Source: an uncultured virus (IMG/VR IMGVR_UViG_2882234885_000004) (taxonomy: Duplodnaviria > Heunggongvirae > Uroviricota > Caudoviricetes). From it: a DNA stretch of 64,000 nucleotides. The notes beneath the pieces are model-generated. The model was not told the DNA's origin, made no database searches, and was given only the letters and a program-made list of their open reading frames with translations. The stretch lies in the IMG/VR virus record IMGVR_UViG_2882234885_000004; one strand, 5' to 3'. The position numbers and the translations under genes were made by a program. Of this stretch, positions 29,884 through 63,384 are shown one piece after another (the first letter of the stretch is position 1; the number at the start of each line of letters is the position of its first letter).

Positions 29884-29912
29884 TTGACTAATATAATATT
29901 ATGTGGTATAAT
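29884..29912 (+). promoter_or_regulatory. Promoter (repeated family), preceded by terminator 29846-29880
   Basis: TTGACT-17-TATAAT. Confidence 0.75.
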
Positions 29913-29941
29913 ATTGTTAGATTGAAAGAGGGGAGGACTCT

Positions 29942-30520
29942 ATGACTGAATTGAACAAGAAGAAAAAAGATACTGGAGTGCGTTTGAACGGTGTTCACAT
30001 CGACGAGTCCTGGCCTAAGTGGAAGCAGTTTTACACTGCCTATTACCCGCTGCTGCGTGATATGTGCGCAGTTTTGCTGATATGTTTCGTCCTATTCGGG
30101 ATGATTTTTAATATCCATACAGTAAGTGGTTCCTCGATGGAGCCGACTTTTGATAGCGGAACTATTATCATCGGGAACCATATTGCGCCAGACCTGGAAC
30201 GAGGTAACATTGTCGTTTGCAAACCTTCGAATCACGATAAAATCATCATCAAGCGTATTATCGGTGTCCCCGGTGATGTCATTGATATCGACTATGAAAA
30301 TGGCATCGTATATCGTAACGGAGTCGCACTGGAAGAGGACTATGTGAAGGCTCCTACACGAGCTGACCTGGGTCTGGAACTTCCAATTACCGTCGAGGAC
30401 GACTGTTATTTTGTCATGGGAGATAACCGCAACAACAGCCTGGACAGCCGCTATCCGCAGATTGGCCTCATCCATAGGGATGAAATCATCAGCACCTATC
30501 TATTTACTGTATTTGGTTAA
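29942..30520 (+). CDS. lepB: Signal peptidase I
   Basis: GSSMEPTF, IIKRIIGVPGD, GDNRNNSLDSR. Confidence 0.93.
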   Translation: MTELNKKKKDTGVRLNGVHIDESWPKWKQFYTAYYPLLRDMCAVLLICFVLFGMIFNIHTVSGSSMEPTFDSGTIIIGNHIAPDLERGNIVVCKPSNHDKIIIKRIIGVPGDVIDIDYENGIVYRNGVALEEDYVKAPTRADLGLELPITVEDDCYFVMGDNRNNSLDSRYPQIGLIHRDEIISTYLFTVFG

Positions 30521-30714
30521 TTTTCAGCAGGAATTTTCTTTTTGCCAGCCGAGAAATCGGCTGGCTTTTTTTCATGCTCATTTTGCCGCAGTACATTTCT
30601 TGAAAACAAATTATTAAATTTTTTCTGAAAACTGAAGTTTAGAGACCTTAAAACTATGCTCCAGCCCGCTTAGGAACAGGCATCCAGAGAAAAAAGGATG
30701 GTCCGCCTCTAAAA

Positions 30715-30743
30715 TTGACCAAAATAATGTAAAATGGTACAAT
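30715..30743 (+). promoter_or_regulatory. Promoter (repeated family)
   Basis: TTGACC-17-TACAAT with TGG extension. Confidence 0.7.
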
Positions 30744-30790
30744 ATTGTACCGGGATATATAGCCCGGAAAATAAAAAGGAGGTCAAGAAC

Positions 30791-32164: not shown

Positions 32165-32193
32165 TAGCAACCCCCAGAGGCTGGTGATTTCAC

Positions 32194-33033
32194 ATGGCAA
32201 AAGTTGATATGGAGCGGGTAAATGAGTACCTGATTCCGATGAACTTTATCGATGAGTCCAGGTTCCTGAACGGTATTTTTAAAACGAGAAACTTCGTAGA
32301 GGGGTCCATCATGGGCGGCACTGTCGGCATCATTTTTTGGGCTCTGATATCCGCCCCCTTTGAAGCGAAGCTCTCTCTTATTATCGGCATTGCATTCCCG
32401 TTCTTTATGCTTGGACTCAGTGGTATCAACGGCGACGCTTTCTCCACTTTCGTTTTTAATGCGTTGACTTGGGTGAGGACTCGCGGCACCATGCTCTACA
32501 ACAATGAGACGCGGGCCCTTGCCCAAGCTCCTCTGGCCACGATGATGGAAGAAGAGGGGATGAACGACAAAATCCTCGATATTCTGGATTCGTTTAAGGA
32601 GCGCTCGCAGAAAAAACGTGCGAATACTCCCTTGGTGGAAGGTCGAGATTTTGTATTCGCAGAAGATACAGCGTTAGCCGGGAATTACTTGGATGAAATC
32701 GATGACGAGGATGCAGCACCCAAAGGTAAGCGGCGGAAGACTTCCTCTAAAGATGTCGATACTGAGCCAGAGTCCAAAACAAGCAGTACCCCTATTTTTG
32801 CTGTTGAGGTGCAAGAGGTCGACGTATCCGTAGAACCCGTTCGCATTACATCTAACGTCGACAAAACAGGCGATGATTCCCTTGAATTATTCAGCGCTGA
32901 GCCGCCAGAGCCGCCTGTGGAAGAACAGGAGGGACCGGCTCCCCCAGAGCTAGATAAGAGCGATGGGGAAAAAGAGCCTACAATTCCCGATGATACGGAT
33001 GAATCTGGCGACGAGGAGGATGAACTGTTTTGA
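32194..33033 (+). CDS. PrgI/VirB3-like membrane protein with an acidic tail
   Basis: YLIPMNF, RNFVEG, two TM helices; overlaps the VirB4 start. Confidence 0.65.
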   Translation: MAKVDMERVNEYLIPMNFIDESRFLNGIFKTRNFVEGSIMGGTVGIIFWALISAPFEAKLSLIIGIAFPFFMLGLSGINGDAFSTFVFNALTWVRTRGTMLYNNETRALAQAPLATMMEEEGMNDKILDILDSFKERSQKKRANTPLVEGRDFVFAEDTALAGNYLDEIDDEDAAPKGKRRKTSSKDVDTEPESKTSSTPIFAVEVQEVDVSVEPVRITSNVDKTGDDSLELFSAEPPEPPVEEQEGPAPPELDKSDGEKEPTIPDDTDESGDEEDELF

Positions 33034-35522: not shown

Positions 35523-35526
35523 TGCT

Positions 35527-35578
35527 GAAATGGCTGTTGCCGCTCTGCTGTGGTGGCACCGGCAACAGCCGTTTCTTT
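35527..35578 (+). terminator. Terminator-like hairpin after virB4
   Basis: GAAATGGCTGTTGCCG/CGGCAACAGCCGTTTC plus TTT. Confidence 0.65.
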
Positions 35579-35628
35579 AAAAAAATTCATTTTTATTTCT
35601 AATACCCATCTTAAAGGAGCTGATTCGC

Positions 35629-36192
35629 GTGATTTATGAGGCAACCGTAGACAACCTTCAAGCGCTGATGCGTGCCTGTATCGTTCTTGATAGGACTCAG
35701 ATTTACAGATTCTTTTCAGCGCATCATGACCAAAGTAGGATTGACTTTTTCATTGACTTTTTGATTAAGGAGCGCGTGCTGGATGCCGACGAAACGAAGA
35801 AGAATCGTGTCTGGCTCCGGCGGCAGGCACGCCCTATCTCGCGGCCAAAAGAGGCCGTCATAGCGTCCCGGATTAAGGCGTTCTGGGTGATTGCCAGCTT
35901 TGGGTGTGACAACATTGCCGACGTCGCTCTCCTGGAGTATCCGGCCCAATTCATGTTCGTTACAACGAATAATGAAATCTACGACCTGACGGTCTGTGAT
36001 ACGCCGCAGGTTGCCGCAGTAGCGGCACATAAGAGAGCACTGTATGCACTACACGATACAAAGTATGACGATGATGTGAACCATATCGCCATTGTAAGTG
36101 ATGAAAAAACGGGCCTTGCTATCGGCGGTTATGGGTTCGATAGTTTCTGTATTTTGGATGCGAACAAGATTCCGAGGTATCAGCAATGGTAA
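35629..36192 (+). CDS. Hypothetical protein (possibly DUF5697-like, winged-helix N-terminus)
   Basis: AAAGGAG RBS; the family call is a weak recollection. Confidence 0.55.
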   Translation: MIYEATVDNLQALMRACIVLDRTQIYRFFSAHHDQSRIDFFIDFLIKERVLDADETKKNRVWLRRQARPISRPKEAVIASRIKAFWVIASFGCDNIADVALLEYPAQFMFVTTNNEIYDLTVCDTPQVAAVAAHKRALYALHDTKYDDDVNHIAIVSDEKTGLAIGGYGFDSFCILDANKIPRYQQW

Positions 36193-36980
36193 ATGAGAAT
36201 CTCCCACGTTCGCAAGCTACCAGGTGCGCTCTCCAAGCGTCTGAGTTGGAGGAGCAGGCCAGCACAATGATGCGTGAATCGGCGGCGATATATAAATTGG
36301 CAAAGCGCGGCTCGGAGGCGTGCGCAAAGCTAAAAGAAGTCCTTTCAGACCCTCTATGCGGACCAGAAGTTATCCAGCAGGCCATGGATAATTTCAATCA
36401 ATTCTATGCCTCAGCGTTAAGCCGGACACATGCCCTCTATGAGGCCGTTACAAAGCCGAATATAGCCTGCGGTTTGTGCAATCCGAGGGATGTCCAACGG
36501 GAAAATTACGATGCGTTTGCGGGGGAGATAGAGGGGGTTTTTTCTTTCGTCGAAGACGGAAAATTGTTTATAAAACTGCCCCTTCTTCCTGCAAAAGTCA
36601 ACCACGGTGTTCGTGGCAAACAGCAGGGAAACACTGAGAAGTACTACTACTTTTTTAACCGTTCCCTGGACGAAAGCCTTAACAAAATCGAAGCGCAAGT
36701 CCCTCATTTTGAACAGCAGAATATAGCGTACTTTTCAGTTTTTTCTGTCTCATCGAAGACAATTCCTGATGCAGAAAATATAGACACGAAAAGCGTGACG
36801 GACATCATCTGTCTGCATACCATGTGTGATGATTCGTTTGAAAAGACCAGCTTTTTCTATGCCGGATTTTGCGATGATTCAGTCCCTCCAGGAACTTATA
36901 TTTGCGTGTCCAATCGGAGATTTCAGGTCCCTAATATTTCCCATATTTTAGGAAAATTTCGAGGCAGGAAAACATATTAA
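36186..36980 (+). CDS. Hypothetical protein with a RusA-like acidic motif (DUF6100-like)
   Basis: DAENIDTKSVTDII....DDS resembles RusA DxDNxxKxxxD..DD. Confidence 0.5.
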   Translation: MVNENLPRSQATRCALQASELEEQASTMMRESAAIYKLAKRGSEACAKLKEVLSDPLCGPEVIQQAMDNFNQFYASALSRTHALYEAVTKPNIACGLCNPRDVQRENYDAFAGEIEGVFSFVEDGKLFIKLPLLPAKVNHGVRGKQQGNTEKYYYFFNRSLDESLNKIEAQVPHFEQQNIAYFSVFSVSSKTIPDAENIDTKSVTDIICLHTMCDDSFEKTSFFYAGFCDDSVPPGTYICVSNRRFQVPNISHILGKFRGRKTY

Positions 36981-37199
36981 AAAAACGTCAATTATTCTCG
37001 CACCAGTTTTTATAGGTTTTCTGGTTGCCTATTCTGTTGTGGCACAACGGGTTCCGGCCTGGCTGTACGCCCCAAAAACGGCGGGCTGGAGCTTCTTCGC
37101 CGCAACTGACACTAAACAAGGACTATTCAACTGAATCTTTCAGGGCACATTATGATAAAAAATGAGCTATGAAAAGATTATGAAGAGAGGTGTTATTTC

Positions 37200-38618
37200 T
37201 TGAAGTCGCGGATGTCCTGTTATGACACCATCTTATTCACTCTTCTGTGTTTCAATTATGCTACAAGAAAATCTCTGATGCTACTGAACTTTTCTGACAT
37301 CACAATCTACTACGCCATTCAACGTGGACTGAGTGAAAAAACAATCAGCACATCCTCTATTCGGTACAGGAAAGATAAGGGGGAGAGAAAACATAAGCTG
37401 ACCTATCTCACTATTACACGAACTGGCATTCATTATCTGGCAACTCAATGTGCTCGGCATGTGGAGTGGCTGAAATATTTGCCTAACGATTTAGCAAAGG
37501 TCCGCATCCGGGGAGTCCGATGTGCGATGGCACAAGTTGAGCGATTTACCAGGATGTCAATAGCGGCACAAGCTGCAAACTCAATCGGCGCGTCCGTAAA
37601 ACCAATGTATCTCACAGTAGACAAGGACGCACTCGTTGAACATGATACCTTGGAACGGGCAGAGTCTGTAACCGGGGCCATGAATTCTGACAACACGGGC
37701 ACCTGGTGGATGGACGAATCCTTTATGGATGCCTCCATTGACGACTTCTTTCTGGGCGAAGACGGCGAGCCGGATGAACAAAGCGAGGTCTTACTTGAAG
37801 ACGACACCACCGATGAAGTAGATGACCGGGAACCCCAGATGCTCCTTTCGACGATAGTGTACAACGCCATGAGAGAAGCAGAGGCTAAGAACAGATATCC
37901 AAATGAGAAAGCAGATATTATATTCCATTCATCGAGAGAGATTAAATCTATTCTGAATGCGAACATCAAGTCCGCAAACAGTACACTGGCATCACGGGAC
38001 TTGATGATTTGCCGGTACTCAGGTCTTTTAGAAAGCTGTTCCAACTCCCTGTTGCTGTATGTGCCCAATGCGATGGGGATGGACTGGAGAGAACGAATCG
38101 TACGGAAAGAGGTTGCAACCCATACGGCCTTTGCGAAGCTGTTCTCAAAATTTGGCCCTATCCGGTATGACCGGCAACATGGAGCGGTACTTGTTCAGAA
38201 CGAAAAAATGCTGGGAGACATTTTCTTTGACAGGCAACACCGGCGTGGTGATAACGAGGTCCTTGGGAGGTCGTTCAATAAATTCTACGTCATCCCACTG
38301 GACAAGGGTGGGATGGATGACCTGCGCACAATCATGACGAAGGATTTAGACAAAATGAGGAAGCAGCTCTTGGAAGCGGCAATAAGAAGCGGGGTCTATC
38401 AGAGAAATGATAAGTTGAGCACAGAGCTTTTCCCACTGCAGAATCAGGAGGGAACCCTGATAGCCGATGGGACAATCATGGATTTAGTCCAGATAAATGC
38501 CATAGAGACGCTGGCCTCGCATATTCCTGACCTTCAATACGGAGTGTTATGTCGGAAGCGCCATCTCCCATATTATCAACGCATCATGCCGAGAGCATGT
38601 TTCATGTTAGTCGAGTGA
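37200..38618 (+). CDS. Hypothetical protein, possible replication-relaxation-type DNA-processing enzyme
   Basis: Winged-helix-like YLTITRTGIHYL; last gene of the transfer region; no HUH motif seen. Confidence 0.35.
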   Translation: MKSRMSCYDTILFTLLCFNYATRKSLMLLNFSDITIYYAIQRGLSEKTISTSSIRYRKDKGERKHKLTYLTITRTGIHYLATQCARHVEWLKYLPNDLAKVRIRGVRCAMAQVERFTRMSIAAQAANSIGASVKPMYLTVDKDALVEHDTLERAESVTGAMNSDNTGTWWMDESFMDASIDDFFLGEDGEPDEQSEVLLEDDTTDEVDDREPQMLLSTIVYNAMREAEAKNRYPNEKADIIFHSSREIKSILNANIKSANSTLASRDLMICRYSGLLESCSNSLLLYVPNAMGMDWRERIVRKEVATHTAFAKLFSKFGPIRYDRQHGAVLVQNEKMLGDIFFDRQHRRGDNEVLGRSFNKFYVIPLDKGGMDDLRTIMTKDLDKMRKQLLEAAIRSGVYQRNDKLSTELFPLQNQEGTLIADGTIMDLVQINAIETLASHIPDLQYGVLCRKRHLPYYQRIMPRACFMLVE

Positions 38619-38671
38619 CTTGTAAGAAGGTTAAAATTCCATTGTAGCGAAGCTCGACGCAAATGAAAATA

Positions 38672-38700
38672 TTGCACTATTTATTATTATATGGTACAAT
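38672..38700 (+). promoter_or_regulatory. Promoter (repeated family)
   Basis: TTGCAC-17-TACAAT. Confidence 0.7.
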
Positions 38701-38729
38701 ATGATTAAACTGAGAGAGGAGGCTTCCGC

Positions 38730-39185
38730 ATGTACGACATTACACTCAACGGAATTACACGGAGCGCGGAATTCGTCATGGACCTGGAAAACCACATTCT
38801 GACGAGAACACAGCTCATCATAGAAGACGGAGCGGATAACGAGAACGCCGACGTGCTGGAGGTACATATCCGTGACAGAGATAGCCCATCCAACATGACA
38901 GTCGCATGGATGGTCCTGTATGGAGACAAAGGTGCCATCATTGACGCCATCAAGGATAAATTCCCGATGGCGAAGCTGGAGACAGAGGCCATCTTCAATG
39001 CGTTTGCGCAGGACGAGCTTGAGGTGAGCGTATGCTATACCTATCCTCTCGACGGCGAGCTGACCCGCATCATGAAGAACTCCAAAACCTATCGTGCCTT
39101 GTGTGCAGCACAACTAGGTATCGTTGCAAACATGTGGGGGCTTGAGCAAAACCAAGTCCGCGTATTGGAACATACGAATAGCTGA
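38730..39185 (+). CDS. Hypothetical protein
   Basis: GAGGAGG RBS, own promoter and a downstream hairpin. Confidence 0.75.
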   Translation: MYDITLNGITRSAEFVMDLENHILTRTQLIIEDGADNENADVLEVHIRDRDSPSNMTVAWMVLYGDKGAIIDAIKDKFPMAKLETEAIFNAFAQDELEVSVCYTYPLDGELTRIMKNSKTYRALCAAQLGIVANMWGLEQNQVRVLEHTNS

Positions 39186-39310
39186 TAATAGAGAGCGCAT
39201 TGCATGAATGGGAACCTGCCCAGTTATGTGTGCGCTCTCTTCTCGTCTTGACTATGAGCGGGCGGCATGATAAAAATATAGCATAGAAACTAAATGAGGA
39301 GAGGTCGCTC

Positions 39311-39646
39311 GTGGTTTACACATTGGAAGAGATTAGCCGCCTAGTGCAGCCAGTCGCAGAGAAATATCATCTCAAAACTGTGTACATCTTCGGCTCCTAT
39401 GCTCGCGGCGAAGCTCAGGATAATAGCGACATTGATTTGCTGGTGGATTTAACAGGCGCAGACCTGTCTGAATTCTTTGCGGTGGGCGGCCTCTACAATG
39501 ACTTGGAGGACGCACTGCAAAAGCACATCAACTTCATGACAACCGGCTCATTGAACCAGATGTGTCTCAAGAGGAGCGACCGCCTCCTGCGTAATGCAAT
39601 CCAGGCCGAGATGAAGGAAATCTATACTTCCAAGAGGGGAGAATGA
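39311..39646 (+). CDS. Minimal nucleotidyltransferase (MNT antitoxin-like)
   Basis: IFGSYARGEA..SDIDLLVD. Confidence 0.9.
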   Translation: MVYTLEEISRLVQPVAEKYHLKTVYIFGSYARGEAQDNSDIDLLVDLTGADLSEFFAVGGLYNDLEDALQKHINFMTTGSLNQMCLKRSDRLLRNAIQAEMKEIYTSKRGE

Positions 39647-45226: not shown

Positions 45227-45390
45227 TTTTCGCAGTCAATAAGCTGACAGTGCGAGGAGGGGCCGCCAGCAGGCGGTTTTCTCCCCGCTCTTTTCTGCCT
45301 CTCTCGGTGTTCGCCAGATGGCCCCAAAAATCAAATTTCCTCTATCCAGACAAATGTGTTATAATGCACAGCACACGGGGGTGGTCTCAT

Positions 45391-45912
45391 ATGCTCATCT
45401 ATCTCTCCATGATTGAGAGTGAAGCCGATAAATCACTGTTTGAGCAACTCTATATCCGGTACAAAGGGCTGATGTACCACATCGCGTATCGGATTTTACA
45501 GAACCGGGAGGACGCAGAAGATGCCGTCCACCAGGCTTTCGTGTCTCTTGCGAAAAATATTAAAAAAATTACAGAGGTCGACTGTCCGAAAACCTATGGT
45601 TACATCGTTACTATTATTGAGAGGAAATCTATTGACAGTCTAAGAGCGAATAAGCACATTGTCAGCACGGATTTTGAAGAGTCTGAACCTGGCATAGAAA
45701 TCCCACCGCCGGGAGAGGGAGGTCTTGCAGATGCCATAGCAAAATTGAATCCCCGCTACCGGGAAGTCATCCTGCTTCACTATGCCTATGGGTACAAGAC
45801 CAGCGAGTTGGCCGACATGCTGGACATGAAGCAGGACTCCGTTCGCAGATTACTTTGGCGTGCAAAGGAGGCTCTTAGAAAGAACTTAGAGGAAGGAGGT
45901 ATTCCAGTATGA
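45391..45912 (+). CDS. ECF RNA polymerase sigma factor
   Basis: DAEDAVHQAF (region 2); LNPRYREVILLHY..ELADML..VRRLLWRAK (region 4). Confidence 0.9.
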   Translation: MLIYLSMIESEADKSLFEQLYIRYKGLMYHIAYRILQNREDAEDAVHQAFVSLAKNIKKITEVDCPKTYGYIVTIIERKSIDSLRANKHIVSTDFEESEPGIEIPPPGEGGLADAIAKLNPRYREVILLHYAYGYKTSELADMLDMKQDSVRRLLWRAKEALRKNLEEGGIPV

Positions 45913-46601
45913 GAGACCAACTGACAGATGAGATGTTGACTCAGGCGGCAAAGCAAGTCGCGGTATCCATGAAAGCGTCCCTGCCGGTCCCCGAAGAATG
46001 CCACCATGAATTTCCTCCCGAATTCGAGCGTGATATGAAACGGCTCATTGCCCAGACGGAGCGAAGGCGTATTATGCGCAGATATCTCCAGAGAGTCGTT
46101 GCGGCCTGCCTAGCTGTGGTCATCAGCCTGAGCGCCTGGCTGGCCGTTGATGCAGAGGCCCGGGCGGCCTTTGTTCAGTGGGTCAAAACTGTCTATGAGC
46201 AGTCTGTTGTCTACGAGTTCTTCCATTCTGGAGTTGAACAGGCTGATACCAGCTACAGACTTGGTTGGGTGCCGGAAGGCTACACCATGGAAAATGAGGT
46301 GAGTGGAGATGTCATTACCACTCTCATTTATCTCAGCGGTGAGGATGCTATCTACTTCACTTACGAACAGGCAGAGGATGGTGCTCAAACCAAGCTATTC
46401 ACTGATGATGCAAATACGGAACCTGTTATGGTCCATGGAGTAGAGGGAGAATTCTATTTGTCTCAAGACAACGCTGAATCCAATAGCCTAGTATGGTTTG
46501 ATGGAGAAAACAACATCCTGTTTTCTATCTCTGGCTTCATAGACAAGGAGACAATGATAAAAATGGCAGAGTCTGTTGAAATCATAGAACCGTCAAATTA
46601 G
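45909..46601 (+). CDS. Membrane anti-sigma factor, DUF4367-like
   Basis: HEFPPEFE, TM helix, WVPEGY, LVW..ISG..MIKMAESV; coupled to the sigma gene. Confidence 0.8.
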   Translation: MRDQLTDEMLTQAAKQVAVSMKASLPVPEECHHEFPPEFERDMKRLIAQTERRRIMRRYLQRVVAACLAVVISLSAWLAVDAEARAAFVQWVKTVYEQSVVYEFFHSGVEQADTSYRLGWVPEGYTMENEVSGDVITTLIYLSGEDAIYFTYEQAEDGAQTKLFTDDANTEPVMVHGVEGEFYLSQDNAESNSLVWFDGENNILFSISGFIDKETMIKMAESVEIIEPSN

Positions 46602-46721
46602 ATAAAAACTGGCTCCAATTTTATGCTTAATGACGAAAAACAAAAGTTGAAGTCGAGGACTGTCCGATATCACCTCTTTGTGACGTTTCTCCTAGTAGAA
46701 CGTCACAAGGAGGTGAATTTT

Positions 46722-47084
46722 TTGAAGAAGCGACTTCTGCCTTTGGGACTTGCAGTAGTGCTTGCTATCGGAATGACTATCTGTGCCTCGGCCGCTGAAC
46801 CTCAGATTGAGCCTCGGCTCCTTCAGGTCCACTCCGCTTTGACCTTTTCGGGGACAACTGCTAATTGTGAAGCAATGATTACCAGTGCCTCTGATAGTAT
46901 TAAGGCCACTATGACGCTGAAGCAGGGGAACAGAGTTGTCGATTCCTGGTCCGGTTCCGGCACTGGCATAGTCTTTCTGGAGGGCGATTGTAAAGTCACC
47001 AAGGGTGTGACCTACACGCTCACAGTTGAAGGAACTCGGAATGGAGTTGCTTTTGAACCAGCAACAGTTACCAGAACCTGCTGA
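46722..47084 (+). CDS. Small secreted beta-rich protein
   Basis: AAGGAGGTG RBS, TTG start, signal peptide ending ASA. Confidence 0.75.
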   Translation: MKKRLLPLGLAVVLAIGMTICASAAEPQIEPRLLQVHSALTFSGTTANCEAMITSASDSIKATMTLKQGNRVVDSWSGSGTGIVFLEGDCKVTKGVTYTLTVEGTRNGVAFEPATVTRTC

Positions 47085-47257
47085 TTCCAGGTTCAGCGCA
47101 GATTTAATCTGGAAAAGGACATATTTCATATGGTCAATATGAGATATGGCAGGTACAGGATTTTTGTACTAACGAAGTGTGTTTCATGGATTAACGAAGA
47201 TTTGCAATCCTTTCCACAGAGAAAACCTGCAAACAAACAAGAAAGGATGCAAGTAAA

Positions 47258-48235
47258 ATGGCGGTTTATGAAATTATCAATGTCGGCGCAAACAAGGCCC
47301 TTAATATTTCTGGGTCTAATCTGAAAGGAACGAGTTTATATAATAACCAGGGGATTACCCTTTGGTCTCGTTCTGGTTCCAGCGAGCAATCCTGGATTTT
47401 CACAACTACGAGCAAACCAGCGTGTATCAGAAGCTATCTGAACCGTGAATTTGGGCTTAATGCACGCAAAAATAGCTCTACAAAATATAAGTGTGACATC
47501 CACGAGATAGATGGAAACGAGACAGATACGGCCGTTGGCGTTGAACATATTAGCACTGGTGACAGAATCAAGCTGCTGAACTATGACTTATATCTTACGG
47601 CTGACGGTACAGGCAATGGAGCTACTGTCTCTTGGGCACCAGAGAGTTCGAGCAATCTCCAGCTTTGGAAGTTAAATGAGAAAGATGTTATTACACATGG
47701 GAAGACAACGACACTGTATGGCCCTGTAGGAAACTATAAGACTGGTAACTTGTTAGAGAGCCAGCGCAAAACTAACGCAAAATATATTTATGATTTTCTC
47801 ATTGATAACGGTTTCACTAAAGAAGCTGCCTGTGCAGTTCTTGGAAATTGTGAACAAGAAAGCACCTTTAATCCCTCTGTGTGGCAGACATTAAATGACC
47901 TCGACTTAGGATATGGCATCGTACAGTGGAGTCCTGCCACGAAATTCCTTCAGTGGGCAGTGGACATTGGCTTGATTGCTTCAGTCAGCGCTGCTATAAT
48001 CAATACCCTGGCCAAAAGCTCTGTTCAGAAACTTATGGATGCAGAGCTGACATATTTTATTTTTACTGCAGCACTGTCTGGGGATTATTTTTCCGGTAAT
48101 TCTTTTGAGACGTTCAAAAACTCAACCGATTCTGTGACCGAACTTGCAAAGACCTTCGTTTTGACCTACGAAAAAACCACCAGCGAAATCGCAAAGCGGC
48201 AAGAATACGCTCAGAACTGGTACGAGTATTTTTAA
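47258..48235 (+). CDS. Ricin-type lectin plus phage-tail-lysozyme domain protein
   Basis: QSW/QLW lectin repeats; AACAVLGNCEQES, GYGIVQWSP, FVLTYEK. Confidence 0.8.
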   Translation: MAVYEIINVGANKALNISGSNLKGTSLYNNQGITLWSRSGSSEQSWIFTTTSKPACIRSYLNREFGLNARKNSSTKYKCDIHEIDGNETDTAVGVEHISTGDRIKLLNYDLYLTADGTGNGATVSWAPESSSNLQLWKLNEKDVITHGKTTTLYGPVGNYKTGNLLESQRKTNAKYIYDFLIDNGFTKEAACAVLGNCEQESTFNPSVWQTLNDLDLGYGIVQWSPATKFLQWAVDIGLIASVSAAIINTLAKSSVQKLMDAELTYFIFTAALSGDYFSGNSFETFKNSTDSVTELAKTFVLTYEKTTSEIAKRQEYAQNWYEYF

Positions 48236-48325
48236 CTGAGTTGTAATGTTGTACCATGTATTAGTACGCGGGGACTGTTCTCAGCCTCCGCGTACTAATA
48301 AATTTTGTTATTGAGGTGGATAAGA

Positions 48326-49135
48326 ATGGTGAATAAGACTTCGGGATGGAAAATGTCTATTGCATGTACAGCTTTTCTGATGATGTGTTCGCTTGTGCTC
48401 TCAGCGTGCAGTGTGGGCAGCATACCAAAGCAAGAAGAGAACTGTGATACAAGCACAACACCGGATGTATGCGAGACAGCGGCAGGAAGCCAGGAAACCA
48501 CACCTCAAGTCAATAATGAAATAATAGATATGGCAATGGCTGCGTATCGTGACGTGCTCCTCGGAAAAAGTAATTACTTCGATGCTCCGACAGCAGAAAA
48601 TCTAAACATCAACCAGTTATACGATATTGATAGTATTTTCCCAGCGACTCCAACGCAATTCGTTCTGCAAGATTTGGATGATGATGGTCTTCCAGAAGTC
48701 ATTGTTCAAATGGATATGAACGGCATAGAAAATTTTGGGAGTCTAATACTACATTATGAAGATGGCCAAGTTGTTGGATACTGCCTGTGGAGACGAGCGT
48801 TCGGAGACTTAAAAACAGACAATACTTTTTATACATCCGGTGGCGCATTTGACCATGGCTATTCCCGCATTGACTTTTCTGCTTTCGATAATACGGCAGA
48901 TGCTCCGAGTAATACAATTATACATCCAGTATGTTATTGCTCATCCAGCGCAGGCTATGATGAAGACGGCGAGCTTATCGAAAAATATTATAACGATGGC
49001 GTGGAAATAACTGCTGAAGAATTTGAACGAGAGCAAGAAAGACAATTTGCAAAAGAGAATGTGCAATGGATGGAGTTCACATCAGATAACATCAAAAACT
49101 CTATTGCACAATTTCAAAATTCATCCAATAGGTAG
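48326..49135 (+). CDS. Acidic lipoprotein (candidate immunity protein)
   Basis: Lipobox LSAC; DLDDDGLPE motif. Confidence 0.7.
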   Translation: MVNKTSGWKMSIACTAFLMMCSLVLSACSVGSIPKQEENCDTSTTPDVCETAAGSQETTPQVNNEIIDMAMAAYRDVLLGKSNYFDAPTAENLNINQLYDIDSIFPATPTQFVLQDLDDDGLPEVIVQMDMNGIENFGSLILHYEDGQVVGYCLWRRAFGDLKTDNTFYTSGGAFDHGYSRIDFSAFDNTADAPSNTIIHPVCYCSSSAGYDEDGELIEKYYNDGVEITAEEFEREQERQFAKENVQWMEFTSDNIKNSIAQFQNSSNR

Positions 49136-49796
49136 CAATAGATATTCTGAAGAGCAAATCTCAATTTTGAAGGAATATGATGGCAGTCCCATTGAAGACA
49201 ATCCTCAACTGAGGGGTATATTTGCCAATATAAATGGCCGCTTACGGCTTAGAAGCCAAGACGATGATAGTGTTTGCGTTAAGTTCGAATGGGACTGGGA
49301 TGGACTTCCAATGTTGTCCGGGTACGCAGTCACAGATGTTGTTACATGTGCTTGGTTAGGAGTAGACTCTAATAATAAAGGTCATGCGTTGCGGCTTGTT
49401 GAAGATGAGTCCGAATGCAAAGTCTATTACTATTCAAGAGACGATTTTAATTACGAATACAGTGAAATGGTAGAGATTGATGACACGAATCCTGACGAGA
49501 GTGCAGAGGCTAGAATTCAAGTTGGGTCAGACAATCCAAACCATATGGATACATTTGCTATGTCGGGTGAAATGGAGATTACACTTGAAGAACCAGTTAC
49601 TGTCAATGATTTGCAATATTGCACACTCGTGTTTGGGTATGGACATACGGTTCTGACATTCGATGCCAGCTTCAGTGTTTCTATTAGCGGCATCAGTGTT
49701 AGCATATCTCCTACGATGGGAACTGAAGCGATGTTTAATGGCTCTATCTCAGTTTGGTCAGATGGAAGCGTTGATTATGGTGGAGATGCAGCTTAA
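49136..49796 (+). pseudogene. Probable 5'-truncated acidic protein gene
   Basis: Open frame with no credible start or RBS; the only upstream start overlaps the lipoprotein gene by over 100 bp. Confidence 0.45.
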
Positions 49797-50010: not shown

Positions 50011-50094
50011 TCATTAAGCCCTATCATCCTGGATAAAACTATTCCACTGAATAGGCCCGGCATTACGCCGGGCCTATTTTTATCCCTCACAATA

Positions 50095-50123
50095 TTGATT
50101 ATTTTAACTTTATATGGTATAAT
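50095..50123 (+). promoter_or_regulatory. Promoter (repeated family)
   Basis: TTGATT-17-TATAAT. Confidence 0.75.
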
Positions 50124-50172
50124 ATTATAAATTTAGCAATGTACATATCTGCAGTGAGGTGAGACGATAACC

Positions 50173-50760
50173 ATGGAAATCAATAAAAACGCTAACATTT
50201 CCGATACCCAGTGGTTTTTGTACCCCAATGGATACGACTCAAATATCAACCTGCTTATCACCGACGCCAGCAAACGTATCCTGGCCGCCACAATACTGGG
50301 CTGCACTAGCAGAGTGATTCTGCAGTCTATCCCTATGGTCCTGGTCTGTGACAAGGGCAGTACAATTCCTGCGATACAGTATGCTGAAGCCAGGGGCTAC
50401 AATATTCACCGCGCAGAGCCAAACTCCAGTGCGGGCGAGTTACTGGAGCCTGGTGATGCACAAGGACCTGCAGCCACCATTGTGGAAACAGGGGATGGTG
50501 GCCTGCCCCTTACGCGGGCTGGCATTATCTTGGGCCGCATCCTGGAGTATGTCTGCTATGCGACCAACCATCCATACCTGGCCATTCTCATTGACGACCT
50601 GCCCTCCCTGGGTCAGGTGCCGCATATCGAGAATGTCCTGGCCATGTCCAGCAAAATCAATGTCCGGTTTTGTATGACCGCAGAGCACATGAGCGAGGTC
50701 GCCGCCGCCTACCCGGCAACGCACATCAAAATCATCGAGAACTGCAAGGTATTTTTCTAA
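50173..50760 (+). CDS. Miniature VirD4/TraG-like protein lacking Walker A, the TM anchor and the all-alpha domain
   Basis: Aligns by eye to two segments of the VirD4 in this window (see findings). Confidence 0.65.
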   Translation: MEINKNANISDTQWFLYPNGYDSNINLLITDASKRILAATILGCTSRVILQSIPMVLVCDKGSTIPAIQYAEARGYNIHRAEPNSSAGELLEPGDAQGPAATIVETGDGGLPLTRAGIILGRILEYVCYATNHPYLAILIDDLPSLGQVPHIENVLAMSSKINVRFCMTAEHMSEVAAAYPATHIKIIENCKVFF

Positions 50761-50793: not shown

Positions 50794-51327
50794 ATGCAAG
50801 GTATCAGAGCCGGAGGAAGCACCGGCTCGAAAATGAGTTTCTACTGCGGATGTGTCTTCAGCGTTGTTGGCGTGATTTTCATTATCACCTTTTTGCTGGT
50901 CATGTCTCATTGGGAAACAGTGGTCATAAATGGTCGTGGCGCGGTGTGGCTCATCCCGGTGGCGTTTGGCCTGATGAGTGTAATAATGCTTGTCATTGGG
51001 TTCTTTCTCCTCCGTTTGTACGGCAACGAACAGAAAAAGATTCGCCGCTTGCTGGAACGTGGAGAGTATGTCATGGCAGACATCACGGGCTTCCCGATAA
51101 ACTACCACAACAGAATAAACGGAATCCCAACCTACTTCGTCAAGTGTACCTATCAGGACCCAGCCACCGGGACCATTCATGTGTTTAGAAGCCGGTATAT
51201 AAGCATTGCATTGCTTCCACAAAAAATCAAAGCGGACACTGTGAGGGTGTATGTAGACAGAAGCAAAGGATACCAAGACTACTATGTGGACGTGGACAGC
51301 ATCCTGCCCCACGTAGTGCGGCATTAA
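50794..51327 (+). CDS. Two-TM membrane protein (DUF3592-like)
   Basis: Two TM helices, LLERGEYVMA, VRVYVD..YYVD. Confidence 0.65.
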   Translation: MQGIRAGGSTGSKMSFYCGCVFSVVGVIFIITFLLVMSHWETVVINGRGAVWLIPVAFGLMSVIMLVIGFFLLRLYGNEQKKIRRLLERGEYVMADITGFPINYHNRINGIPTYFVKCTYQDPATGTIHVFRSRYISIALLPQKIKADTVRVYVDRSKGYQDYYVDVDSILPHVVRH

Positions 51328-51336: not shown

Positions 51337-52005
51337 ATGAAACAGACATTTTTCAATCACAGAAAGACAGCGGCATTTCTGAGCACAGTCCTGTGCCTTT
51401 CAGTACTGACCGGGTGCGGGACTCCCAGCAATCAGCCTGCGCAGTCAGAAGGCCCCCAGCAGTCTGAGCAACAGATGGAGTTCCCCTATGAGCTGACCAT
51501 CGGCGGCGTGGGCTATTCCTTCGCTTTCTCCTATGACGACCTGACCTTTCTGGGTTGGGAGTCCCAGTCAGTGAAGACGGAGGACGCTGAAAAGGTCCTG
51601 GTGCCCGCCGGGGAGACCAGTGAATCGTCTGAGGACGATGCAGTGTACTACAAGAACGGCGATATCCGGGGCGCACGGCCTATTTTCTATAACAGCGACG
51701 CCGAAAATCAGTTTGTGACTGAGTGCGAGGTCGTAGGCTTTGTATTCGATGACAGCTATAACTACAGCTATCCCGCCGGTGAGGTTGCGGTCAGCGGACC
51801 GGATGGAACGGTGGAGCTGGGTATCTCTACATACGACGAGGCTTTGGCAGCCCTGGGGACGCCGGTGAGCGACGACGGTACGACCATCCTGTATACAGGG
51901 AACGGGGAGGAGACCTGCACCAAGTATCTGAAACTGGAATTTGACGACACCGGAGTGCTTGAGTTCCTAAGCATTCAGTCGTATACTGCTGATACAGAGG
52001 ACTGA
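51337..52005 (+). CDS. Acidic lipoprotein
   Basis: Lipobox LTGC; AAGGAGG RBS. Confidence 0.75.
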   Translation: MKQTFFNHRKTAAFLSTVLCLSVLTGCGTPSNQPAQSEGPQQSEQQMEFPYELTIGGVGYSFAFSYDDLTFLGWESQSVKTEDAEKVLVPAGETSESSEDDAVYYKNGDIRGARPIFYNSDAENQFVTECEVVGFVFDDSYNYSYPAGEVAVSGPDGTVELGISTYDEALAALGTPVSDDGTTILYTGNGEETCTKYLKLEFDDTGVLEFLSIQSYTADTED

Positions 52006-52031: not shown

Positions 52032-52526
52032 ATGCAGATTGAAAACAGAAAGCACTGGATAGACCAGATTATGGACAACGTGTCGGATTACGAGCTGACC
52101 GCGATGTTCGCGGACCTCACAGAGTTCCGGCGGACTGCGCTGCTGAAGCCGGAAAGCACTGTCCGGGCTTTGGACAGAATTTTTCGGAAGCAGTGCGGGC
52201 AAAGCGATACCATGCTGCGGGTAGTGGAGGATGCGGTGCTCTATGAGATGGCCCGGCGGTACAACAATGCCAACGAAGATAACAGGGCCGCAGCCATTGA
52301 GAGATGGAAGACTCAGGGATTTAGGGAGGTCTTGCTCTACAAGGACGAGGCGAGCACCCCAATTTTGACGTACTGGGTCTTTGCAGATAACGCGGACAAC
52401 CTCACCCTGGGACACTTTGACAGCGAAGAGGCCGCTCGGGAATTCATCCGTCAGAATGGATACACCTACGGAAACGATGGCTCCGTTATCATCGCCTCGG
52501 ACGAGGGCGGCGCAGAGGACGAATAG
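52032..52526 (+). CDS. Hypothetical protein
   Basis: ORF within the co-oriented operon. Confidence 0.65.
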   Translation: MQIENRKHWIDQIMDNVSDYELTAMFADLTEFRRTALLKPESTVRALDRIFRKQCGQSDTMLRVVEDAVLYEMARRYNNANEDNRAAAIERWKTQGFREVLLYKDEASTPILTYWVFADNADNLTLGHFDSEEAAREFIRQNGYTYGNDGSVIIASDEGGAEDE

Positions 52527-52579
52527 CCAAAAGTTTCTGTCAGACTCGGAAAGTACCCGCAGGGAGGAGGGATGAGCAG

Positions 52580-53137
52580 GTGCAGACAATTTGTTACTGG
52601 ACAAAACGGCCGGAGTTATCGCAAAAGGCCGAGAGCTTTGCGAAGGAGAAGGTCAATCACGACACACGAATTTACAGGCGAAACCGGGTATTCACGATTG
52701 CTGCGGTCACATTTCTGTCCATAAGCGGCGTGTTCATGGCCGGTTGCCTTCTGCGAATGATTGCTCACATTATGGCGGGTGTACCGGATGATGACCCTCA
52801 GTTCTATATCTGGCGGCTCTTTCTCAGCTTATCTACGCTTGCGATAGGTCTCATCCTTTTTCGGGTTCGTCCGGTACTGGAAGAGCTGCCTTGGCCAGAC
52901 TGGTATGCGCAGTATATGCTGGACGAGACCCGCCTACAAATCCTTCTCCCTGGGAAGCCTGTCCGGGTCAGCGGCATGGTCGACAGGTTCGGCCGCCGCC
53001 TCCCGGAATGTGAGGCATACCGAGGTATTGCCGATTTCGACTCCAGAAAGTTGTTTCTCCTCTTTCAGGCCGGTCCTGACAGGAAGTTCTGTGTTATAAC
53101 CTCTCTGGACGACATGACATTCATCCCATACGGATAG
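52580..53137 (+). CDS. Two-TM membrane protein
   Basis: GGAGGAGG RBS; followed by terminator 53143-53174. Confidence 0.6.
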   Translation: MQTICYWTKRPELSQKAESFAKEKVNHDTRIYRRNRVFTIAAVTFLSISGVFMAGCLLRMIAHIMAGVPDDDPQFYIWRLFLSLSTLAIGLILFRVRPVLEELPWPDWYAQYMLDETRLQILLPGKPVRVSGMVDRFGRRLPECEAYRGIADFDSRKLFLLFQAGPDRKFCVITSLDDMTFIPYG

Positions 53138-59126: not shown

Positions 59127-59517
59127 CCTCATCCTTCGGAGGGTCGCGGCCGCCTACTTCGCGGGGGATGAGGTCATCCCCTGCGGAGAGGCCCGGGCTG
59201 CGATAGAGATGTGTCCGGCGGCAGAACTTCCGCCAGACTGGCTCAGCAGGGAAGCCGTCCAGTTGGCCGTAAGAGAAGCCTATACTGGCTGTATGGATTC
59301 GACCGTCTATGCGCCAAGGGATTTCCTCCGTCTGCTGGACATAGTTCCGTCAGTCCGGCAGCATGAGCAAAATTTCGGTCACTGGATACGCCGGGATGTG
59401 GCAGGGGAGGACCCGTGGGAGTGCAGTGAGTGCGGCAATTCCGTTCCGGTCTATGGATATCATTTCTGTCCAAACTGTGGGTTTCCGATGAGATTGGGAA
59501 AGAAGGCGGGTAAATGA
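59113..59517 (+). CDS. Phage-like protein with a C-terminal Zn ribbon
   Basis: GHW..CSECG..FCPNCG. Confidence 0.7.
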   Translation: MERDDLILRRVAAAYFAGDEVIPCGEARAAIEMCPAAELPPDWLSREAVQLAVREAYTGCMDSTVYAPRDFLRLLDIVPSVRQHEQNFGHWIRRDVAGEDPWECSECGNSVPVYGYHFCPNCGFPMRLGKKAGK

Positions 59518-60062
59518 AACCTGAAAGTTGCATTCGCAAACTGCCGATTTATCAAGGCAATATCCTCGAAATATCCCATCCGGCTCCGACCTTTATCGTC
59601 CAGCAGGTCAACTGTAAGGGCGTGATGGGTGCTGGTCTGGCAAGGCAAATTCGGGCGAAATGGCCCGGTATCTATGCGCCATATGTAGAAATCTGTCGGA
59701 ACAAGGGTGTACAGGCACTGGGCACAATGTTTCCCTATGTGACACCAGATAATGGTCCCGTTATCTGCAACTGCTTTGCCCAAGACGACTATGGCCGCGA
59801 TAGGCAATATACCTCATATCCGCACCTCCATAAAAGTCTTTGTCAAGTAAGGGCGTATGCGGAAAGCCATTTCAAAGATTATCTTGGTACAAAAACGCCA
59901 GTCTCTATTGCAATCCCCTATGGGTTGGGATGCGGCCTGGCCGGAGGCGATTGGAACACGGTTTATGGCATCCTTAACGAGGTGTTCTTTGACTGCAATA
60001 ACAACTATCTGCACGTTTACATTTGCAAATTGCCCGAGCGGCGGAAGGAGGAACTGAAATGA
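59514..60062 (+). CDS. Macro domain protein (ADP-ribose processing)
   Basis: QQVNCKGVMGAGLA; IAIPYGLGCGLAGGDW. Confidence 0.88.
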   Translation: MKPESCIRKLPIYQGNILEISHPAPTFIVQQVNCKGVMGAGLARQIRAKWPGIYAPYVEICRNKGVQALGTMFPYVTPDNGPVICNCFAQDDYGRDRQYTSYPHLHKSLCQVRAYAESHFKDYLGTKTPVSIAIPYGLGCGLAGGDWNTVYGILNEVFFDCNNNYLHVYICKLPERRKEELK

Positions 60063-60688
60063 GCACTGTCCCGAGAAGCCCGTATCCAGATGGAGACCGC
60101 AGCATCCTGGCCTGTCCATCCTGCGGAAGCGGTGAATACCTGTGGAACGAGGACGGAAACCGCAACCATTTCTGCGGCCAGTGCGGTCAGGCTATTGATT
60201 GGGGGGATGAAGCGCCCAGGAAGGACCTGCGGGTCGCCTGTTATTGCCGTGTGGCCACCAGGGAGCAGGCGGAGGAAACTGACATGGAGACGCAACGTGA
60301 GCTGCTTGCAAGGGAAATCAAGAACGGAAAGTTCGGTCCCAACTGCTATATCCTGAACCCGCAGGAAGACCCCGCCGCCGTCAAGGCGCTCCGGGCCTAT
60401 GCCGCCGCGACTGACAACGGGGAACTGGGCATGAGCCTACTGGCTACCATCAAGCCGTTGGAGCGGCCGGAGGAATGCCCATTCGACCAAAGCACCAAAA
60501 CACTTCAGTGCCTGTTCGATGAGGCGTGGAAGCTGAACACTTCCGCAGAAACCAGAAGCCAATTTACCCAGATGGTCACGGACCAGCTCTCCGGCATCAT
60601 GCAGGATTTCAATTTCCTGGTGGAGAACTGGAAGCTGATGACTGGATTCGCGGATTTCCCGCAGGACAAGGAGGACAACGAAACATGA
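60059..60688 (+). CDS. Mosaic hypothetical protein (Zn ribbon plus serine-recombinase-like fragment)
   Basis: CPSCG..FCGQCGQAIDW, then RVACYCRVATREQ. Confidence 0.6.
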   Translation: MSTVPRSPYPDGDRSILACPSCGSGEYLWNEDGNRNHFCGQCGQAIDWGDEAPRKDLRVACYCRVATREQAEETDMETQRELLAREIKNGKFGPNCYILNPQEDPAAVKALRAYAAATDNGELGMSLLATIKPLERPEECPFDQSTKTLQCLFDEAWKLNTSAETRSQFTQMVTDQLSGIMQDFNFLVENWKLMTGFADFPQDKEDNET

Positions 60689-60876
60689 AAACCTACAAGC
60701 TGGTTCTGGGCGGCTTGGATATGCTTGCGGCAGCCGCATCCCTGGCTTTGGCCATCAAAAAGAAGAGCAGCCTGCAGTACGGGTTTGCGGTCGGATTTGC
60801 TCTGATGGGCGCACTCAATCTGCTGGACGCCGCCCAGGACGACAAGTACCCCGACATCTATGGTGGCCGGGCATGA
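60685..60876 (+). CDS. Small membrane protein
   Basis: AAGGAGG RBS; two hydrophobic stretches. Confidence 0.6.
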   Translation: MKTYKLVLGGLDMLAAAASLALAIKKKSSLQYGFAVGFALMGALNLLDAAQDDKYPDIYGGRA

Positions 60877-61298
60877 CCTGCGTCATCTGCTTGGAGGATA
60901 GGGGAGGGGTGATGTTCAATCACCGCCGGGTCAGCCGGGATGCGGCCGTCACAGACCGTATCCTGAAACTCGCCGCCGAGTACGGCCCGCTGAATATCAC
61001 CCCATATACCCTCCGCCTCCTGCCACAGGAAAATATCCCCTCATGCGTAGCCCATATCTGCGACCACCCGATTACTGAGGAAAAAGGCACCTGCTGGTTG
61101 GAGGATACCGTTGGAGAACTGCGGCCTGACGCCGCAGACAGGCTAATTCTCTTCCGTTGGAACCGAACATATCCGGCAGACACGCTCTTTGACCGCGAGG
61201 CATTCTTTTCCGGGGGCAACTGGAAGCTGACAAGCCAAGAGGAATTCCCCGGGAAATCTCACGAAAAAATCACTATGGAGGTATACCACCGTGCTTAG
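60873..61298 (+). CDS. Hypothetical protein, possible DHFR-like fold
   Basis: GVMFNHRRVSRD, WNRTYPAD, FPGKSHEKIT. Confidence 0.55.
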   Translation: MTCVICLEDRGGVMFNHRRVSRDAAVTDRILKLAAEYGPLNITPYTLRLLPQENIPSCVAHICDHPITEEKGTCWLEDTVGELRPDAADRLILFRWNRTYPADTLFDREAFFSGGNWKLTSQEEFPGKSHEKITMEVYHRA

Positions 61299-62106
61299 AC
61301 AGAAAATTTTAGCGATTGGCACCGCCCTGCTTCTCACCTTTTCCCTTGCCGGGTGCGGCGGGGAGGCCACTCTGGGCGATATCTATGATGGGCTCAGCGA
61401 TATTCCGGTCGAGGATATCGTGGATGGGGCCTCCGGTCTGCTGGATGGAGCGATTCAGGACGCCACGGATGCCTGGAACGAAGGTACATCCCAGAGCGCC
61501 GGGCAGAGCACCAGCGCTGTATCCTTGGACGACATCCCCGAGTTCAGCGACAGTCCTTATGTTACAGTGAATGACAATATCCCGTACTTTACAAAAGATG
61601 ACCTGACCACGGAGGCGTTTGAGACCTATTCTGAGTTGGATGACCTGGGCCGCTGCGGCGTCGCATACGCCAATGTGTGTCAGGAACTGATGCCCACCGA
61701 GGACCGGGGCGAAATCGGCCAGGTGAAGCCGACCGGCTGGCACACTGTCAAGTATGATTTTATCAGCGGCAAGTACCTGTACAACCGCTGCCATCTGCTG
61801 GGGTATCAGCTCACAGCGGAGAATGCCAACGAACAGAACCTCATCACAGGCACCAGATACCTCAATGTAGAGGGGATGCTCCCGTTCGAGAACATGGTCG
61901 CCGACTATGTGGAGGAAACAGATAACCATGTGCTCTACCGTGTGACTCCTATCTTCCAGGACGACGAACTGGTGGCCCGGGGCGTCCTCATGGAGGCCCT
62001 ATCGGTTGAGGACGACGGCGAGGGTATTTGCTTCAATGTCTACTGCTACAACAACCAGCCCGGCGTCATCATCGACTATGCGACAGGGGAGAGCCAGGCT
62101 GCTTGA
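61291..62106 (+). CDS. Lipoprotein DNA/RNA non-specific endonuclease
   Basis: Lipobox LAGC; LDDLGRC, PTGW, YNRCHL, NLITGTRYLN, YRVTP. Confidence 0.9.
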   Translation: MLRQKILAIGTALLLTFSLAGCGGEATLGDIYDGLSDIPVEDIVDGASGLLDGAIQDATDAWNEGTSQSAGQSTSAVSLDDIPEFSDSPYVTVNDNIPYFTKDDLTTEAFETYSELDDLGRCGVAYANVCQELMPTEDRGEIGQVKPTGWHTVKYDFISGKYLYNRCHLLGYQLTAENANEQNLITGTRYLNVEGMLPFENMVADYVEETDNHVLYRVTPIFQDDELVARGVLMEALSVEDDGEGICFNVYCYNNQPGVIIDYATGESQAA

Positions 62107-62121
62107 TAGAGAGGACCAGTT

Positions 62122-62565
62122 ATGATATATACCGTTTTAACTAACAAGGCAATACAGATTGCTTATGAGGCCCATCAGGGGCAGGTCGACAAAGCGGGAC
62201 TCCCGTACATCTTCCATCCATTCCATCTAGCCGAGCAGATGACGGATGAAATCTCGACCTGTGTGGCCCTGCTCCACGATGTGGCGGAGGATACCGATGT
62301 GTCGCTGGACGACCTGGCCGGGGAGTTTCCCCCAGAGGTCATGGAACCGCTGCGGAAGCTCACCCACCAGACTGGGGTGTCCTATGCTGACTACATCATC
62401 GGCCTACGGGATGACCCGGTGGCCAAGAAGGTCAAAATGGCTGACATCCGGCACAACTCGGACATGAGCCGATTCTCCGGGGGAAAGCCTATCTCGCCTC
62501 GGGATGCTGCCAGACTGGGCGAAAAGTATAAGATGGCTTTGGCCCTTCTCTCAGAAGGACACTAA
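62122..62565 (+). CDS. HD-domain small alarmone hydrolase-like protein (RelA/SpoT hydrolase, Mesh1-like)
   Basis: AHQGQVDKAGLPYIFHP, LLHDVAED, VKMADIRHN. Confidence 0.85.
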   Translation: MIYTVLTNKAIQIAYEAHQGQVDKAGLPYIFHPFHLAEQMTDEISTCVALLHDVAEDTDVSLDDLAGEFPPEVMEPLRKLTHQTGVSYADYIIGLRDDPVAKKVKMADIRHNSDMSRFSGGKPISPRDAARLGEKYKMALALLSEGH

Positions 62566-62589
62566 AATTTCGATAGGAGGTTTTCTGCT

Positions 62590-62814
62590 ATGAAGCATAA
62601 GCGAGCATTTACTGTCCTTGTGGGCATTGCTATCGGCGGCGCGGTCGCCGCCATCGTCCATCAGCTCCGTAAGCCGGTCACATACAATCTTCGTGACAGC
62701 AGCGGGAAAGTGGCGGCCACCGGCACGACGAAGGATGGAAAGGTCACAGTCGACGGGTCGCTTCCCTATGGAACATACACCATTCGGGAGGAAGACCCGG
62801 CCGCCGCTGAGTGA
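62590..62814 (+). CDS. Small membrane-anchored protein with a partial SpaA/Cna-B-like domain
   Basis: TM helix, then TTKDGKVTV..LPYGTYTIRE. Confidence 0.55.
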   Translation: MKHKRAFTVLVGIAIGGAVAAIVHQLRKPVTYNLRDSSGKVAATGTTKDGKVTVDGSLPYGTYTIREEDPAAAE

Positions 62815-62826
62815 GGGTGATGCAGT

Positions 62827-63384
62827 ATGATTCTGGCTTTTACAGGGGCCGGTATCTCCCAGGCATCCGATGTCCCCACATTTGCTGAACAGCCGGGTAT
62901 CCGGGACTGCCTCACCCGCAGTTATGCTATCCAGCACCCGGCGGAGTATAGGGAGGTCATCGCTGAGATGCAGGCGGCATGTGATGCCGCTGCTCCCAAT
63001 GACGCTCATCTCGCCCTCGCAGAGTATGATGTTCCGGTCATTACTATGAATGTCGACGGGCTTCACCAGAGGGCCAGGAGCCGCCACATTCTGGCTATCC
63101 ACGGTACTCTGCCGGACATCGTGCTCTATGACGACCCGGCACCGCTGTACGAAGTGGCTCACAACTGGGTGTTCCAGTTGAGGGAGGGGGACTTTTTCCT
63201 GATAGTGGGAACATCCTACTACACCAACATCTCTGTGCAGCTCAAACGGGAGGCGCTCAGAAGGGGAGCAGATGTGTTCGAAATCGACCACGATGCGGAG
63301 CATCTGGTCCGAGACTTCCTCCAGAAGGCGGATACTCCGGCCTGCACATTTGAGCAATTTTTGGCAAGAAGCCCATATGTATGA
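62827..63384 (+). CDS. Compact Sir2-family NAD-dependent deacylase
   Basis: FTGAGIS..SDVPTF, NVDGLHQRA, IHG, VGTS. Confidence 0.88.
   Translation: MILAFTGAGISQASDVPTFAEQPGIRDCLTRSYAIQHPAEYREVIAEMQAACDAAAPNDAHLALAEYDVPVITMNVDGLHQRARSRHILAIHGTLPDIVLYDDPAPLYEVAHNWVFQLREGDFFLIVGTSYYTNISVQLKREALRRGADVFEIDHDAEHLVRDFLQKADTPACTFEQFLARSPYV

Follow-up and report, generated by a model that had tools for sequence, protein, structure and literature searches.

Here we report that a 195-amino-acid (aa) protein encoded in a 64,000-nucleotide stretch (the window) of the uncultured virus record IMG/VR IMGVR_UViG_2882234885_000004 derives from a VirD4 coupling protein of which the bare RecA-like core survives; it is soluble, has no Walker A and is kept under selection. 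We refer to it as the mini. The window sits in a low-GC island of contig C20 (G000:C20 ~237,270-489,500), an integrative and conjugative element (ICE) of ~252 kb, and this ICE carries, besides its active VirD4, a second VirD4 of 712 aa that is Walker-A-dead, membrane-less and also under selection. The anatomy of the mini and the trio are solid, while its function as a decoy is put forward as a hypothesis. The features concerned are the following.

50173..50760, plus strand: mini-VirD4 gene (P0001, 195 aa), open frame throughout
50248..50418, plus strand: N-terminal core half (residues 26-82), with the Walker A strand and its destroyed P-loop, the next helix and a GY motif
50578..50754, plus strand: most conserved block (residues 136-194), with the Walker B strand, the arginine-finger helix and the Y..T..I..NC helices
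27439..29841, plus strand: active VirD4 of the element (800 aa), with transmembrane (TM) segment, GASGSGKT and DE
L021:9732-11960 (G000:C20 ~450.7-453.0 kb), beyond the window: P0077, the other dead VirD4 (712 aa counted from the start common to its relatives, G000:C20 ~450.8-453.0 kb)

The kinship of the mini with VirD4 is clearest in its C-terminal block. BLASTP aligns residues 138-194 of the mini with residues 418-474 of the window VirD4 (25 % identity, pairwise E 3e-6), and a profile of this block built from long VirD4s scores 35 bits on the mini, a value equalled by none of 200 shuffles. With an all-VirD4 profile of the same block, none of 200 shuffles does as well for each of the 10 minis tested. 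TrwB_AAD_bind is weakly matched by 18 of 18 family members and TraG-D_C by 17 of 18, all under the curated cut-offs; the NCBIfam CD1115 VirD4 model (NF045973) hits the mini at E 3e-4, also under its cut-off, and no Pfam match to the mini is found at E 0.01. Its top match in the Atlas (0.96) is a 191-aa TraG-D_C cluster, possibly its own.

A first-pass annotation of the window, made from its letters alone, had aligned the mini with VirD4 in two blocks. Of these, the C-terminal block is robust. In the N-terminal block the sequence similarity of the mini does not reach significance, as BLASTP and hhalign miss it and 6 of 200 shuffles equal its score. The N-terminal block is nevertheless backed indirectly, by its significance in the distant relative P0028 (residues 23-76, none of 200 shuffles) and by structure: the match of the mini model to type IV coupling proteins (T4CPs) spans residues 11-195 and shows a RecA-like nucleotide-binding fold closest to TrwB. 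The structural check of the proposed kinship is thereby passed, with the N-terminal half assigned weakly by sequence and backed by structure.

The losses are equally characteristic. Walker A (GxxxxGK[ST]) is present in none of the 29 family proteins against 7 of 7 active VirD4s checked, in agreement with its predicted destruction. The change of DE to DD at Walker B, claimed from the same first look, holds for most close relatives but not for five distant ones, which read EE, ED or DE. The claimed loss of the TM segment and of the all-alpha domain is borne out: no 19-residue window exceeds a hydropathy of 1.8 in the four minis checked, and only ~15 residues link the two halves, against ~150 in VirD4. 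Also missing are the C-terminal part of the nucleotide-binding domain and the C-terminal barrel strands. At the arginine-finger position, which we take to be that of TrwB R375 from the alignment and the TrwB context, 18 minis have R (7), S (6) or G (5), and the arginine is not conserved. As it has neither Walker A nor an all-alpha domain nor an anchor, we class the mini as a derivative of the VirD4 family and not as a functional member.

The family comprises 23 relatives at 61-99 % local identity, out of 240 candidates, and five full-length distant relatives at 24-30 % identity obtained by profile searches. Size is 187-212 aa in 24 of the 29 proteins, the other five being truncated, fused, frameshifted or extended. 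The ratio of nonsynonymous to synonymous substitution rates (dN/dS) of the mini lies within 0.14-0.24 for each of the 10 pairs formed by five loci, similar to adjoining genes, and 0.01-0.10 in 9 of the 10 pairs for residues 131-195. Compared with the related record G401, these residues are 95 % identical (dS 0.69, dN/dS 0.03) and the rest of the mini 67-70 %. The gene is also a mosaic, with dS between the window and L007 falling from 1.37 in its first half to 0.10 in its second. Among 11 loci from other records the open reading frame (ORF) is intact in nine, broken in one (L012) and cut by the contig end in one. Most homologues, then, have an intact frame, and selection on them is purifying. 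Searches of 400 family genomes, 400 order genomes and the plasmid and phage collections did not find the mini, which therefore seems confined to one element family.

The closest relative of the mini is not the product of the gene at 27439 but the second dead VirD4, whose gene lies ~63 kb beyond the mini. P0077 is 31 % identical to the active VirD4; it is without a membrane anchor, its Walker A has been removed by a two-residue deletion, its Walker B reads FLLHE and its barrel hairpin is mostly lost, with the all-alpha domain and RKR motif kept. At its C-terminus lies a highly conserved domain of ~200 aa that belongs to no known family. None of eight P0077-type proteins has Walker A, and dN/dS is 0.10. 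A profile of the minis scores P0077 at E 6e-9 and the active VirD4 at 0.01; the minis and P0077 have ALA.S.K.NV.FCMTA in common where active VirD4s have MATIRKR.MNVCMIFQ; and a tree (27 rows, 171 columns) joins minis and dead long proteins at 100/100. The branches of the tree are long, however, and an alternative topology is not rejected (p-AU 0.086); the distant mini P0026 fits the active profile better than the dead one. From these sequence comparisons, the mini most likely descends from the dead membrane-less paralogue, through loss of the all-alpha domain and everything past the core. A dead long VirD4 of 560 aa (P0086, a single sequence), in which the all-alpha domain is replaced by a short mini-like linker and the C-terminal domain is kept, looks like an intermediate, or else lost the domain in parallel; its longest contig equals in length that of the distant mini P0026. 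All three proteins (active VirD4, dead long VirD4 and mini) are encoded by record G401, and longest contigs of equal length suggest the same trio in the elements of distant members. The start of the C-terminal domain of P0077 resembles, by eye, a ribbon-helix-helix; the gene has its own family promoter, and a TraX gene lies two ORFs downstream.

We tentatively propose, with somewhat less than even confidence, that the mini is a one-sided cap that binds the VirD4-family proteins of its own element and limits ring assembly. As the P-loop is absent, the mini presumably cannot use ATP, and as the all-alpha domain is absent, it should not recruit substrate; with both activities gone, it would be left with a binding surface. 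T4CPs mutated in Walker A lose their activity and do not support transfer (PMC7434980, PMC13463995), and deletion of the all-alpha domain leaves TraJ stable yet transfer-dead (PMC13463995). The arginine finger (R375 in TrwB) works on the site of the neighbouring subunit in RecA-type rings (PMC9886983). The conserved half of the mini, from Walker B to the arginine finger, would be the one that faces the neighbour's nucleotide pocket in such a ring, the P-loop half having eroded. Docked on the active VirD4 or on the dead 712-aa paralogue, the mini would provide no reliable arginine finger and no site for the next subunit; it would end the ring, limiting or timing ring assembly and transfer. Such a cap is possibly a brake of the element on its own spread. 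It is conceivable, if decidedly uncertain, that this giant gut ICE family has made regulators of its own coupling-protein copies, with an active pump, a dead full-core paralogue bearing a new C-terminal domain and a bare-core ring terminator.

Several points weigh against this reading. T4CPs are not ranked top by Foldseek alone. Oligomerisation of TrwB and TraD is reported to need the membrane anchor (PMC7434980), and the barrel strands that stabilise the Cag-beta ring fall past the end of the mini (PMC9886983), so that its affinity may be low; loss of anchor, all-alpha domain and barrel strands weakens the case for entry into T4CP hexamers. The dominant-negative case met in the literature searched is a chimera with a membrane anchor (PMC7431656). 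Since the conserved block includes buried core strands, folding may account for part of its conservation. In comparison with G401, identity is 97 % for the active VirD4 but 73 % for the mini, which is loose for a dedicated partner. Finally, the mini lies 21 kb from virD4 amid unrelated membrane and secreted (envelope) genes, and its promoter type occurs at ~50 sites, so transfer genes are not singled out by it.

The genomic setting would suit a different role, which we consider unlikely although worth weighing: the mini core may have been co-opted to work, on the cytoplasmic side, with the membrane protein and the lipoprotein that its own operon encodes, with contact to VirD4 lost, for example as an adaptor or sensor that helps to exclude incoming elements or to control the envelope-protein cassette. 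The 222-aa lipoprotein-like gene lies downstream of the mini in 8 of the 11 other loci (the remaining three end too early), the 177-aa membrane gene is 84-88 % identical in three other loci, and the mini, far from virD4, diverges faster than VirD4. However the residues retained are motifs of the T4CP family, and the linkage to these neighbours is known within one close clade. Fertility inhibition, also raised by the first-pass annotation, would have the mini poison the coupling proteins of co-resident ICEs or plasmids and not its own. The host genome contains at least five further full-length VirD4 genes and one split VirD4, which provides rivals; PifC and Osa are known to target T4CPs (PMC5696584); and the allelic divergence and mosaicism of the mini would suit an arms race. 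We nonetheless judge this role improbable and found no direct support for it: the best match of the mini is the dead paralogue of its own element, with rival VirD4s at E 0.004 or worse, and in the genome, plasmid and phage sets searched the gene was found in a single element family, at one fixed position. The PifC and Osa families gave no match to the mini in Pfam or NCBIfam, which does not by itself exclude such a role.

Degenerate RecA-type domains act elsewhere as regulatory modules, and the acidic Walker B residues remain in nearly all members. It is nevertheless quite improbable that the mini is a sensor with a non-canonical ligand site, in which the acidic Walker B strand would hold a nucleotide or phosphate, given that the close family has lost the glycines and the lysine of the P-loop, a loop free to vary. 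Decay as a pseudogene, or neutral survival after a VirD4 duplication, would account for the five off-size proteins and the broken L012 copy, but has close to negligible probability and is largely refuted by a dN/dS far below 1 at dS near 1. Size is moreover unchanged at 24 % identity, the promoter is conserved, and the break in L012, which has many broken neighbours, points to an assembly error.

T4CPs of the VirD4/TraG/TrwB type (PF02534, PF12696, PF10412; NF045973) have the RecA-like core, Walker B strand and downstream motifs of the mini, but are 600-900 aa long and possess the TM segment, all-alpha domain, Walker A, conserved arginine finger and C-terminal strands that it is without. TcpB of pCW3 is a short paralogue of the coupling protein TcpA, of FtsK type. 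It is encoded by a dispensable gene in a Firmicutes conjugation locus (PMC3181468, PMC6137059). The tcpB gene adjoins tcpA and is often absent, whereas the mini is of VirD4 type and under measured selection. The nearest precedent for a conserved dead paralogue of a type IV secretion system (T4SS) ATPase is RvhB4-II of Rickettsiales, which is duplicated, has a defective active site, evolves faster and is encoded apart from the main locus (PMC4676284); it is a full-sized VirB4, whereas here two coupling-protein copies are dead, one a quarter of full size. CagZ of Helicobacter pylori keeps its coupling protein out of the ring, as proposed for the mini, but it is unrelated to coupling proteins and binds the all-alpha domain through its tail (PMC9886983); at most, the mini might work like a CagZ-type ring blocker. 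PifC and Osa also act at the coupling-protein step; they are described as recently acquired, fast-moving accessory genes (PMC5696584), unlike the mini, which is fixed in its element family. Hodor megaplasmids (PMC12934698, a preprint) have Rep_3, ParA, type I-C cas, sortase and phage-lysozyme domains in common with the ICE; both have VirB4/B6/D4 and both are without a recognised canonical relaxase. Hodor encodes a giant protein of >7300 aa, however, whereas the ICE is integrated, ~252 kb long and has a longest frame of 2652 codons; the part of the Hodor supplement used here gives one VirD4 family per group and one rare extra. For truncated or duplicated coupling proteins, no passage was found with the terms tried in the accessible parts of a 2025 T4SS review (PMC12857230) and of a Faecalibacterium ICE survey (PMC12084326), and a trio of active, dead and mini VirD4 was not found in the literature searched.

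If the cap is real, conjugation would have a natural inhibitor that arose from the coupling protein itself, the mini would be the smallest T4CP fold under selection, and living relatives would still show the erosion series from VirD4. How coupling-protein rings assemble and are switched off is an open question, and their oligomeric state in vivo is disputed (PMC7434980); a selected soluble core of 21 kDa that keeps one face offers a probe, and possibly a template for conjugation inhibitors. Short or Walker-less VirD4 matches in ICE annotation, usually dismissed as remnants, can thus be functional genes. The analysis also points to a so far undescribed family of elements, ~250 kb in size, that split spoIVA and encode three VirD4-family proteins.

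The description of the mini as an ATPase-dead VirD4 paralogue and first gene of an operon is upheld by the structural match and by selection on its homologues. Its layout is as follows.

50049..50079, plus strand: terminator-like 13-bp hairpin followed by a T run, parting the gene from the variable upstream cassette
50095..50123, plus strand: sigma-70-type promoter of the element family, TTGATT-17-TGGTATAAT, from pattern and conservation
50156..50161, plus strand: Shine-Dalgarno-like GAGGTG, 11 nt upstream of the ATG, read from the sequence
50794..51327, plus strand: operon gene 2 (177 aa) of no family, with two membrane helices predicted at the N-terminus
51337..52005, plus strand: operon gene 3 (222 aa) of no family, its sequence read as bearing a lipoprotein-like signal
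52032..53137, plus strand: two more co-oriented ORFs (164 aa and 185 aa); a family promoter follows near 53390

Four co-oriented genes therefore follow the mini ahead of the next family promoter. The frame, ribosome-binding site and family promoter were rightly read as intact: the TTGA and TGGTATAATATT parts of the promoter are unchanged in 7 of 7 aligned loci despite differing flanking DNA. The hairpin (-24.9 kcal/mol, z -6.4, matched by none of 200 shuffles) is not among the terminators listed by a consensus scan. The dN/dS of the 222-aa gene is 0.09-0.17. The slot immediately upstream of the mini varies between loci, holding a ricin-lectin/phage-lysozyme protein and a lipoprotein-like gene, or different secreted proteins; this cassette looks exchangeable and is possibly a hydrolase with its immunity gene. 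An ECF sigma factor, a DUF4367 anti-sigma-like gene and a 153-aa secreted protein lie upstream of the slot (window 45250-49796; L001, L004-L012).

The ICE splits spoIVA and has a large serine recombinase at its right end. Its host is inferred from spoIVA to be a spore-forming Firmicute, in which restoration of spoIVA would require excision of the ICE; two related loci come from human gut metagenomes. Genes in the window include Rep3, topoisomerase, pilin-like, VirB6-like, CHAP, VirD4, PrgI and VirB4. Beyond it, where annotation covered 144 of 188 ORFs, are ParA, type I-C cas genes, a sortase and large surface proteins, and no recognised canonical relaxase is found among the annotated ICE genes. 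The ICE also carries an anaerobic ribonucleotide reductase, a DNA ligase and RecJ, RecG, RecD2 and UvrD. The split VirD4 of the host genome (G000:C11:268-7294, pieces ~5 kb apart) and that of L029 (C-terminal piece in G435) are ordinary broken genes that keep the canonical motifs where checked. Record G401, that of L001, is a 147-kb IMG/VR record classed as viral and 93 % identical to the transfer region 20000-39500; it is probably not a virus but a fragment of an element of this conjugative family.

The family promoter pattern has 53 matches in the 252-kb ICE against 11 in the other 2.87 Mb. These promoters (TTGA/TTGC ... TGGTATAATATT, with an AT-rich spacer) precede most ICE operons and lie in the window at the following positions.

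1388, 2904, 11113, 17831, 21235, 24656: family promoters
29904, 30735, 38692, 41300, 50115, 53411: family promoters, continued

AATATTG is repeated at both promoter ends and may be the site of a master regulator. The ICE encodes two stand-alone RNA polymerase alpha C-terminal-domain proteins (L017:4313-4840, L020:12621-13235) and an extra sigma-70-like factor (L019:12831-14222). Genes with macro-like, HD, SIR2 and NADAR domains (window 59514-63384 and L018:2563-3486) form a set with a possible role in NAD/ADP-ribose handling or counter-defence.
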